Numbered from the stretch's first letter, positions 19,488 to 40,704 are shown. The stretch: DNA of 64,000 bases from Clostridia bacterium (GCA_017439965.1 JAFSID010000078.1:652-64651); one strand, 5' to 3'. Made by a program: numbers and translations. The notes: generated from the sequence alone by a model not told the origin.

Positions 19488-19516
19488 AGTATATCATAAA
19501 CGCTAATAAAAAGCAA
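19488..19516 (-). promoter_or_regulatory. Sigma-A type promoter for P1
   Basis: Minus strand TTGCTT, 17 nt, TATACT, preceded by an extended -10 TG. Confidence 0.4.
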
Positions 19517-39844: not shown

Positions 39845-39919
39845 GCCTGCATAGTTAAATGGATATAATAAACCCCTCCTAAGGGTTAGTTACAGGTTCG
39901 ATTCCTGTTGCGGGTGCCA
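39845..39919 (+). tRNA. tRNA-Arg (anticodon CCU)
   Basis: Hand-folded cloverleaf. Acceptor GCCTGCA/TGCGGGT, D-arm GTTA-AATGGATA-TAAT, anticodon arm AACCC-CTCCTAA-GGGTT, T-arm ACAGG-TTCGATT-CCTGT, encoded CCA. Confidence 0.85.
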
Positions 39920-39956
39920 AAAAATCCAAGTCCTTTTTGGGACTTGGATTTTTTTA
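39920..39956 (+). terminator. Intrinsic terminator after tRNA-Arg
   Basis: AAAAAA-TCCAAGTCC-TTTTTG-GGACTTGGA-TTTTTTT. Confidence 0.8.
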
Positions 39957-40181
39957 TCCAAGCCGACAGGCTTGGTATATCATCAGCACGATAGGGCTGT
40001 ATATCATTACCGCACAAGTGCGGCGTATATCATCACACCGTAGGTGTGCATAAAAAACTGTCGGCTTGATGATATACAAAACTAAAGTTTTGATGATATG
40101 CAATTCCTGCGGAATTGATGATATACAACGGCTATGCCGTTGATTTATTCCCGCTTTTATGCTATAATACATCCAAGGCGG
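39956..40181. repeat. Inverted double array of the 11-mer GTATATCATCA with interleaved variable hairpins, bounded by ATCCAAG
   Basis: Forward copies at 39975, 39999 and 40025. Reverse copies at 40067, 40091 and 40116, plus a degenerate copy at 40140. The hairpins differ in sequence. See findings. Confidence 0.75.
40140..40168 (+). promoter_or_regulatory. Sigma-A consensus promoter facing the ASCH gene
   Basis: TTGATT, 17 nt, TATAAT with extended -10 TGC. Confidence 0.55.
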
Positions 40182-40188
40182 TGATTTT

Positions 40189-40299
40189 GTGGAATTTTTG
40201 TTTGATATTTTAGTTGAAGCATTTTTTGAAATCTTTTGTGAGGGATTTATCGCTCTTTGCTCTGCTTTTACATGCTACGGCGTGCTTTTTGCTTATTAA
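40189..40299 (+). CDS. Possible 36-aa hydrophobic leader peptide
   Basis: GTG 7 nt after AAGGCGG. Translation is (M)EFLFDILVEAFFEIFCEGFIALCSAFTCYGVLFAY. The stop lies 13 nt before the ASCH ATG. Below the ORF-track cutoff. Confidence 0.25.
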   Translation: MEFLFDILVEAFFEIFCEGFIALCSAFTCYGVLFAY

Positions 40300-40312: not shown

Positions 40313-40657
40313 ATGAAACACAAAATGAATTTGATAAAAGAGCCGTTTGATAAAATTGCAAGCGGTCAAAAAACAATCGAATTGAGGCTGTACGACGAAA
40401 AGAGACGTGCTGTTGGTGTTGGTGACGTTATTACCTTTGTATGTACCGAGGATTCAAGGCAAATAAGCACAAGGGTTGTTGCTCTTTATGTGTTTGACAG
40501 CTTTGAAGAGCTTTATAAAAATCTACCGCTTGATAGGTGTGGCTATTCATCTGACGAAATAACTTCTGCACATTGGAGTGATATGGGAAAGTATTATTCC
40601 GAGGAGGAGATGAAAAAATACGGAGTCGTCGGTATCGAGCTTGCATTAATCAAATAA
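40313..40657 (+). CDS. ASCH domain protein
   Basis: 114 aa. KEPFDKIASGQKTIELRLYDEKRR is typical of the ASC-1 homology/PUA-like fold. Confidence 0.7.
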   Translation: MKHKMNLIKEPFDKIASGQKTIELRLYDEKRRAVGVGDVITFVCTEDSRQISTRVVALYVFDSFEELYKNLPLDRCGYSSDEITSAHWSDMGKYYSEEEMKKYGVVGIELALIK

Positions 40658-40670
40658 GTATATCAAAAAA

Positions 40671-40704
40671 TAATCTCCATCATCAAGATGGAGATTAATT
40701 TTTG
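40671..40704 (+). terminator. Intrinsic terminator after the ASCH gene
   Basis: TAATCTCCATC-ATCAA-GATGGAGATTA followed by ATTTTTG. Confidence 0.75.

Follow-up and report, generated by a model that had tools for sequence, protein, structure and literature searches.

A dispersed, polar intergenic array of short words and mini-hairpins behind tRNA genes of gut Clostridia

The 64,000-nt stretch of Clostridia bacterium DNA considered here (GCA_017439965.1 JAFSID010000078.1:652-64651), referred to as the window and numbered from its first letter, carries an inverted array of an 11-nt word, GTATATCATCA, between a tRNA-Arg gene and an ASCH-domain gene. Alignment with homologous loci has shown this array to be a conserved, dispersed and polar intergenic element, whose stems evolve like DNA hairpins and whose words are conserved as sequence; the aligned copies likewise show that the element has spread and has been reshuffled by recombination between copies. 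The reading that we favour, and hold tentatively, is that the window array is a copy, without its partner gene, of an element dispersed in Oscillospirales and Christensenellales that resembles repetitive extragenic palindromic (REP) sequences and bacterial interspersed mosaic elements (BIMEs) and is bound by a four-helix-bundle protein. The family is apparently undescribed and would be kin to interspersed palindromic repeat elements. A preliminary description, made from the window alone, had known of no family with this layout, and none has been matched: an Rfam covariance-model search of the window region at a permissive E-value placed tRNA alone above threshold, with the rest far below gathering scores, and a full-text literature search for the 11-mers returned no relevant paper.

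The array and its homologues

Matches to GTATATCATCA with at most one mismatch begin on the + strand at 39975, 39999 and 40025 and on the - strand at 40067, 40091 and 40116, with a word spacing of 23-26 bp and small palindromes as spacers, just as the preliminary description had them (three words and three reverse complements between tRNA-Arg and the ASCH gene, with palindromic gaps of which the one at 39986-39998 is weak). On the + strand, the left half (39975-40048) is made up of the words at 39975-39985, 39999-40009 and 40025-40035 and of hairpins H1 (39986-39998, the weak one), H2 (40010-40023) and H3 (40034-40048). The right half (40067-40141), in which GTATATCATCA is read on the - strand, contains the words at 40067-40077, 40091-40101 and 40116-40126 and hairpins H4 (40077-40092), H5 (AATTCC/GGAATT, 40102-40116) and H6 (AACGGC/GCCGTT, 40127-40141). 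A 14-nt extended unit, TTGATGATATRCAA, is also seen in the array. The left border is ATCC followed by hairpin H0 (39956-39975, + strand; arms CCAAGCC and GGCTTGG around a GACA loop), and the centre (40049-40067, + strand) consists of CATAAAAAA plus CTGTCGGCT(TG), the second part of which complements the H0 loop and 5' arm. The earlier suggestion of a pair enclosing the left half was borne out, as CAAGCCGACAG (39959-39969) and CTGTCGGCTTG (40058-40068) are perfectly complementary over 11 nt. Beyond the array, the sole other match in 64 kb at up to one mismatch lies at 19489, shuffled sequence gives 0.89 expected matches, and seven were reached in 0 of 100 shuffles. No other 8-mer is repeated three times at 17-40 nt spacing in the window, and the array occurs once there.

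The preliminary description had proposed a wider search for the motif beside a hairpin. Run across 185,579 genomes, one per species, a scan for three TGATGATA cores 14-19 nt apart found at least 119 loci, with 112 homologous arrays among the matches listed once unrelated 12-nt tandem repeats were removed. These 112 arrays come from about 100 metagenome-assembled genomes (MAGs), with two copies on several contigs. The carriers are nearly all MAGs of ruminant or other animal guts, and their records are labelled Acutalibacteraceae, Oscillospiraceae, Christensenellaceae, Eubacteriales or Clostridia. Wherever both orientations are present, two to four GTATATCATCA copies come first and the TGATGATATAC copies second, across a centre gap of 36-46 nt; the reverse order never occurs among the arrays listed.

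The copies are intergenic elements of about 200-250 bp with a common plan. An upstream gene or tRNA is followed by an A-run, a terminator hairpin and a T-run, then by ATCC (TTTTTATCC) with H0, two to four units of word plus hairpin, a centre matching H0, two to four inverted units, and GATT(T/A), which gives the -35 of a promoter. TTTTTATCC with H0 is present in 58 of 58 canonical copies. The hexamer TTGA[TC]N closes the last hairpin in 40 of 56 copies (71%), so that the array abuts the -35; in the window this hexamer is TTGATT at 40140, the degenerate seventh word that had been read as a -35. Promoters homologous to that of the window were found in loci L126, L136, L152, L128 and L185. Among the listed arrays, 46 lie within 400 nt downstream of a tRNA gene, representing at least 14 amino-acid specificities and mostly the last tRNA of a cluster, and in 30 arrays the first word is 52-65 nt past the tRNA 3' end, whatever the anticodon. 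Homology of the window to other loci spans only ~39893/39917-40191, with unrelated flanks. Flanking genes are mostly co-directional with the element (48/55 on the promoter side, 36/49 on the terminator side), and the genes downstream of arrays are functionally unrelated to one another. The family-wide link to terminators and tRNA 3' ends, like that to the protein family 23S_rRNA_IVP described below, lay outside the view of the preliminary description.

Variation on this plan is found in one-directional arrays, which reach 12 units; unit number ranges from 2 to 12 through tandem duplication of hairpin-plus-word units. At L141:1-390, L106:827-1031 and L100:2135-2415, 9-12 units in one orientation contain a tandem-duplicated unit and show minisatellite-like length variation. 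Pairs of arrays can also flank single unrelated genes, for example those for lipoproteins, a MazG-like protein, a TIM-barrel protein or an XRE regulator. Chance matches were all that BLAST of the element returned from phage and plasmid collections, and a pattern scan of viral contigs returned mostly unrelated 12-13 nt tandem repeats. GATGAT-containing repeats of this length occur in viral contigs L058, L016, L015 and L044 and in genomes L073 and L148; they are probably coding or simple repeats outside the array family.

The stems are conserved as pairing. Folding of 272 spacers from 69 distinct arrays gave 1747 Watson-Crick and 14 G·U pairs on the + strand; the counts for the - strand are 1741 and 9, with G·U below 1%. 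Across 58 aligned canonical 3+3 copies, pairing is maintained by double-sided changes at 19 of 43 consensus pairs and one-sided changes are nearly absent, which agrees with the earlier claim that structure rather than sequence is kept and that the layout is non-random. The H0 stem, for example, covaries as AU/UA in 34/24 copies and as GC/UA/AU in 26/26/4. The loops are polar as well. Read on the + strand, left-half loops start with G (69%) and end with A (81%), and right-half loops start with T (88%) and end with C (78%), which is the G..A motif on the - strand. On the GTATATCATCA-sense strand, GNA or GNNA loops were found in 276 of 401 hairpins (69%), 268 of those 276 with a C-G closing pair. 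GCGNAGC and GCGNNAGC are mini-hairpin DNA motifs that are exceptionally stable as DNA (PMC13037366, PMC3201870). The c-GNA-g and c-GNNA-g loops of the family match these motifs, with polarity mirrored between the halves, and each half is optimised on the opposite strand. Taken with the position between terminator and outward promoter, the character of loops and stems speaks for single-stranded DNA that folds, rather than for RNA, and we infer that the array works in the former state.

Two further relations concern H0 and the words. The H0 5' arm shows covariation with two partners, its own 3' arm and the centre; it is paired with the centre in 93.7% of cells family-wide, a level that none of 500 shuffles reached, and in three columns both sides change. 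The match is kept with unrelated sequence in other word families (TCGTTCC/GGAACGA in L185, AATCCGAAGG/CCTTCGGATT in L149) and is broken in a few recombinant copies (L173, L177). Pairing of left words with right words was considered as a selected feature and is not supported, the words being invariant or mismatched: a T·G stands at word position 2/10 in 26 of 58 copies, and the frequent word-3 variant GTATCTCATCA (conserved C5) has no compensating change. The words do not appear to be selected for mutual pairing and therefore behave as recognised sequence.

The linked four-helix-bundle gene and a possible mechanism

The commonest gene directly downstream of the arrays encodes a 114-aa protein matching PF05635 (23S_rRNA_IVP, E = 1.3e-18) and TIGR02436 (E = 1.5e-20), and in at least nine loci it begins 61-64 nt past the last word. 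Further genes of this kind in the loci each follow a terminator (mostly behind a tRNA or tRNA fragment), an inverted word array and a promoter. Their words vary: GTATGTAATC / GATTACATAC in L149 and L069, CAACATCATTTG / AAATGATGTG in L175, contiguous ATTCATT / AATGAAT heptamers without hairpins in L117, and TTCACT / AGTGAA in L131. The proteins vary in step with them. Those of the TGATGATATAC clade are 82-92% identical among themselves, the GATTACATAC pair (L149, L069) has 87% mutual identity and 60% to the TGATGATATAC clade, and the heptamer-type (ATTCATT) proteins form a third clade, with 56% mutual identity and less than 50% to the rest.

As a control for selection bias, homologues of the protein were picked purely for their long contigs. 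Three of three main-clade homologues (L189, L192, L193) have a 3+3 TGATGATATAC array whose end lies about 60 nt ahead of the ATG, and the heptamer-clade homologues L196 and L198, like L117, have exactly five contiguous ATTCATT-type heptamers, a centre and five AATGAAT-type heptamers. A cognate array stood directly upstream in 10 of 10 four-helix-bundle genes examined, irrespective of their own array type. Both clades queried are extremely abundant: each yielded at least 120 distinct clusters (90% identity), none of them below 89% identity and most on contigs shorter than 2 kb. At L117:4020-4086, L196 and L198, the centre of the heptamer array (GCGGATTTTT) is a second copy of the 3' arm of the terminator hairpin upstream, a parallel to the relation of H0 and centre. 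The gene itself often lies between the array promoter and a second ribosome-binding site (AGGCGGTGAT...ATG) of another gene, as at L182:142-486, L115, L092 and others, and, judged from this arrangement, would act as a leader gene sharing a transcript with varied cargo. No four-helix-bundle gene adjoins the window copy, which lies against the promoter of a small open reading frame (ORF) and the ASCH gene.

The predicted structure of the partner protein (pLDDT 93.8) is a four-helix bundle. It superimposes on 2RLD with a TM-score of 0.84-0.89 and on Avd with 0.75-0.81 (4DWL, about 0.8; 8UB7, Avd within the ribonucleoprotein of a diversity-generating retroelement, DGR), with sequence identity to Avd of about 15%; 2GSC was also matched. 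The crystal entries 2RLD, 2GSC and 4DWL contain chains A-E each, and PF05635 has previously been related to Avd (PMC10053308). The word changes with the protein clade and the gene-linked arrays lie directly upstream; the words are therefore most likely binding sites of that protein.

A mechanism can be proposed on this basis. The word-sense strand would become single-stranded either in the lagging-strand template or, during read-through transcription, as the non-template strand; GC skew is positive over the whole window, from which the + strand, with the left-half hairpins, would be the lagging-strand template there. Folding would leave the 8-11 nt words as single-stranded linkers between hairpins, and the four-helix-bundle protein would bind the words, probably displayed in this form between the mini-hairpins. 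One oligomer may be loaded per half-array, and the 5+5 heptamers would fit a pentamer. Bound at the array, which overlaps the -35, the complex would shield the downstream unit from read-through out of the tRNA, set the activity of the outward promoter, or both; in the window this promoter would drive the small ORF and the ASCH gene. Copies that lack an adjacent four-helix-bundle gene, such as that of the window, would respond to the protein in trans.

Several points weigh against this favoured reading. The window type usually has three words per half, not five, and fits a pentamer less well. Protein clade and word could agree because gene and array, being linked, share their descent, and not because of specificity in binding. 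No four-helix-bundle gene lies in the window, and a cognate protein in the genome is assumed. To our knowledge, proteins of the Avd family bind reverse transcriptase and RNA and are not known as readers of DNA words. Some word families, for example the heptamer type, have no hairpins, which are thus not universally required. Finally, in arrays with the word ATGAAATA, described below, the polarity relative to terminator and promoter is reversed, which weakens a simple model of upstream read-through only.

A more specific proposal, which is possible and less probable than the favoured reading, is a protein-DNA repeat system in which Avd-like pentamers would read the words as single-stranded linkers between extremely stable mini-hairpins, cognate pairs of protein and word would have diversified into several specificities, and arrays would have colonised the 3' flanks of tRNAs and other terminators throughout gut Clostridia. 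There is a realistic chance that the pairing of protein and word makes the array a new kind of system. Such a system would be a RAYT-independent counterpart of REP/REPIN and would give 23S_rRNA_IVP proteins their first function outside DGRs. If the favoured reading is true, the element is a widespread, previously unannotated intergenic class in abundant ruminant and human gut Clostridia, explains assembly breaks after tRNA genes in these organisms, offers a testable ligand for the enigmatic 23S_rRNA_IVP/Avd-like family, and is a natural case of selection for DNA mini-hairpin motifs (c-GNA-g) in genomes.

Turnover at tRNA loci and alternative explanations

The surroundings of the window array are as follows. 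The tRNA-Arg(CCT) gene (39845-39919, + strand; ARAGORN, Rfam tRNA 60.4 bits) has its CCA end directly before the element. It is followed by a bidirectional intrinsic terminator (39919-39954), which comprises an A-run, the hairpin TCCAAGTCC / GGACTTGGA with 15-nt arms of 100% complementarity, and a T-run. Beyond the array lies the outward promoter (40140-40168, + strand), with -35 TTGATT, a 17-nt spacer, TG and -10 TATAAT (10/12 with TG in the scan). A Shine-Dalgarno sequence, AAGGCGGTGA, was read at 40175-40184 on the + strand, ahead of a translated small ORF of 36 codons (40189-40299, + strand; GTG start at 40189). Its product, VEFLFDILVEAFFEIFCEGFIALCSAFTCYGVLFAY, is very hydrophobic and has no match in Pfam; it starts at the position where other copies start their cargo gene (a different gene), and could be a leader peptide, a remnant or chance. 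The cargo of the window copy is the ASCH-domain gene (40313-40657, + strand; PF04266, E = 1e-8). A perfect bidirectional terminator with an 11-bp stem lies at 40671-40697 between the convergent ASCH and CE2-esterase genes and is kept in the sister species L184.

This sister species (SpoIIIAH 89% identical) has an identical tRNA-Arg(CCT) followed by an array decayed to three words on the left and one on the right, with only a remnant of the promoter and ribosome-binding site and a three-codon ORF. At this orthologous site neither the small ORF nor the ASCH gene is present, and the array runs straight into the terminator of the convergent CE2-esterase gene. The terminator hairpin differs wholly between window 39919-39954 and L184:4926-4960, though the flanks GCCAAAAAA and TTTTTTTATCC are identical. 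The hairpin module of the window recurs behind other tRNAs in L126 and L136, and by this comparison terminator hairpins appear to be swapped as cassettes. From the differences to L184 it follows that exchange and loss are modular and affect terminator, units, promoter and cargo gene. On the favoured reading, tRNA 3' flanks in gut Clostridia would be modular exchange sites for terminators, arrays, promoters and small cargo genes such as ASCH. In the related species L185 (SpoIIIAH 73% identical), the orthologous tRNA-Arg(CCT) is followed by the same plan built from other words, with ATGAAATA in the left half and TATTTCAT in the right; a ATGAAATA-type array stands in tandem with a TGATGATATAC array in L099. 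More distant relatives (L185:4864-6217, L188) have a phosphofructokinase gene between spoIIIAH and the tRNA-Arg(CCT)/CE2 region; this gene was lost or moved in the window lineage, and the junction is therefore rearrangement-prone.

Metagenome contigs of the window species break inside the array from both sides, as is expected of a dispersed repeat; one contig, L008, reads through the array with no difference from the window. The left half, flanked by inverted repeats, was considered as a possible invertible segment; the contig break points do not coincide with these repeats. A metagenome scan for relatives of SpoIIIAH gave one distant locus, without a tRNA.

The main rival, rather unlikely in our estimate and not exclusive of the favoured reading, is a selfish element of REPIN or miniature inverted-repeat transposable element (MITE) type, non-autonomous and moved by a single-strand-specific enzyme encoded elsewhere (e.g. 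an HUH/Y1-type transposase), with the four-helix-bundle gene as frequent cargo and the terminator and promoter effects as side effects. Copies 75-88% identical behind different tRNAs and protein genes of many species would be accounted for, as would the tandem growth of arrays, the contig breaks, and gain, loss and replacement at the orthologous site; the inverted-doublet design is like that of REPINs (PMC3116915), and units of hairpin plus tag are like GTAG-tagged REPs (PMC3733652). What such an element does not explain is a position that always runs from terminator side to promoter side, and a four-helix-bundle gene linked in 10 of 10 cases with clade-specific words. Neither a target-site duplication nor a precise empty site was found at the compared loci. 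All three window copies of the heptamer ATCCAAG exist as described; as conserved borders they did not hold, the right-hand one reading ACACAGG, CCCAAGG or CTTAAGG in homologous copies, and the heptamers are therefore not a target-site duplication. Where the preliminary description had suggested looking for an empty site with a single ATCCAAG in relatives, L184 has the decayed array and L185 the array with different words. Among ORFs clustered from about 110 flanks, each at most 8 kb long (the search did not extend to whole genomes), no transposase or recombinase recurred, the largest cluster being a spurious ORF through the array. The early idea of a miniature mobile element is thus retained as a dispersed, recombining repeat with turnover and is lost in its target duplication, transposase and empty site; a MITE proper was rejected, given the unconserved right border and the decayed array in place of an empty site.

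An unlikely explanation is a conventional double-stranded operator array, by which some transcription factor would control the promoter at 40140-40168 and the palindromic spacers would be incidental. The last word copies abut or overlap the -35, and a symmetric 3+3 layout suits cooperative binding or looping, so that the operator idea of the preliminary description is supported in part. It leaves unexplained the compensatory evolution of stems without G·T intermediates and the strand-specific GNA/GNNA loops mirrored between halves. The downstream genes are also functionally unrelated, and a period of 23-26 bp is off one helical face.

A structured non-coding RNA, whether a small RNA, a protein-sponge RNA or a cis-regulatory 3' trailer of the tRNA, was another early proposal and is very unlikely. 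Predicted folding of the window region is strong against shuffles (z = -8.4 on the + strand, -6.0 on the - strand), the stems covary, and GNRA loops do occur. However, roughly half of all tetraloops (GACA, GTCA, GTTA) depart from this RNA type, and the scarcity of G·U pairs has no strand bias. A good terminator precedes the array, the sole good promoter points outward, one half is optimised on the + strand and the other on the - strand with DNA-type mirrored loops, and Rfam gives no match.

Least credible of all, and dropped, is the reading of the words as arm-type integrase sites in the attL/attP arm of an element in tRNA-Arg: other strains do diverge from the window exactly at the anticodon loop and a phage contig has an array next to a tRNA 3' half, but the same array stands behind at least 14 tRNA species and non-tRNA genes, in L043 it is on the host side of the phage junction, and no integrase adjacent to the array was found in the window or the ~110 flanks.

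The diverging strains, L006:3706-3854, L010 and L011 (SpoIIIAH 100% identical), depart from the window (39884 onward) right past the anticodon loop (CCTCCTAAG); their tRNA is disrupted, with no ARAGORN call, and about 70 nt further lies another tRNA-Arg(CCT) that looks complete. This divergence is probably an element integrated at the anticodon loop that brought its own tRNA. Neither a displaced tRNA 3' half nor the variant-B sequence was found elsewhere in the window. L043:150-390 (the same sequence as L059) belongs to a phage contig with portal, capsid and a 1978-aa protein, which ends in a reverse-strand tRNA 3' half starting at the anticodon loop, followed by a terminator and a TGATGATATAC-type array; from this order the prophage appears to have integrated into a tRNA already followed by the array. 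At L077:4020-4365, L180:1880-2247, L081:4760-4974 and L196:226-400, a tRNA 3'-end fragment of 19-37 nt precedes the array and an intact tRNA lies 130-300 nt further, which suggests small insertions into the tRNA T-loop or 3' end upstream of resident arrays.

Relation to known repeat systems

Two known architectures can be set aside. CRISPR arrays combine repeats of at least 23 nt with unique ~30-nt spacers and come with a leader and cas genes, whereas the repeats here are 11-14 nt, the spacers are palindromes of 10-20 nt homologous by position, and no cas genes occur in the array flanks. Integron attC sites are single imperfect palindromes with R/L boxes, found in cassette arrays beside intI; the architecture differs, and no tyrosine recombinase recurs in the flanks.

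Other systems share parts of the design. The parC/ParR system of plasmid R1 and Rep iterons are arrays of ~11-bp sites at a promoter, with a small oligomeric protein encoded just downstream and autoregulation; they are plasmid-borne and double-stranded, with direct repeats on one helical face and no hairpin spacers. The present array is like them in its ~11-bp sites overlapping or flanking a promoter and unlike them in its many chromosomal copies after tRNA genes. Pneumococcal BOX and the intergenic mosaic elements of Neisseria are modular intergenic repeats with variable internal units, complementary end modules and effects on neighbouring promoters. The array resembles them in modularity, with no sequence relation; BOX units are 45-59 bp without alternation of word and hairpin, and we know of no cognate protein gene for BOX. 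Altae-Tran et al. 2023 (PMC10910872) include '23S rRNA IVP' in their list of proteins that go with CRISPR-like arrays, and also mention tRNA arrays and interspaced arrays of non-CRISPR type; an element of the window type is not described there. Those non-CRISPR arrays have in common with the present one short regular repeats, variable spacers, no cas genes and the same protein family, and differ from its 11-nt repeats, palindromic spacers conserved by position and inverted halves. Avd of DGRs (4DWL; 8UB7) has the same fold as the partner, belongs to a family related to PF05635 and works as a pentamer bound to nucleic acid. Unlike in a DGR, no reverse transcriptase, template repeat or variable repeat lies near the array, and the proposed ligand is an array of DNA words.

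The closest comparison is with REP/BIME/REPIN-RAYT systems (PMC3116915, PMC3337134, PMC3733652). Like these, the element is extragenic, dispersed after genes and multi-copy, consists of palindromic units with a short conserved tag in inverted doublets, would follow the logic of single-stranded DNA hairpins that has been proposed for REPs, and has one linked protein gene per family. It differs in what is conserved: the array keeps an 8-11 nt word between hairpins and lets the stems vary, whereas a REP is a conserved imperfect palindrome of 20-40 bp, and the GTAG or CGTC tag of REPs is absent. The array has 3+3 or more units in fixed polarity, and terminator and promoter belong to the unit. The linked gene encodes a 114-aa Avd-like four-helix bundle and not a Y1 transposase, and no RAYT gene was found in the array flanks (~110, up to 8 kb; whole genomes were not searched). 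The hosts are Clostridia, whereas REPs are found mainly in Proteobacteria. By analogy, the element would work most like a REP/BIME/REPIN system, and yet it departs from these in the features that define them.

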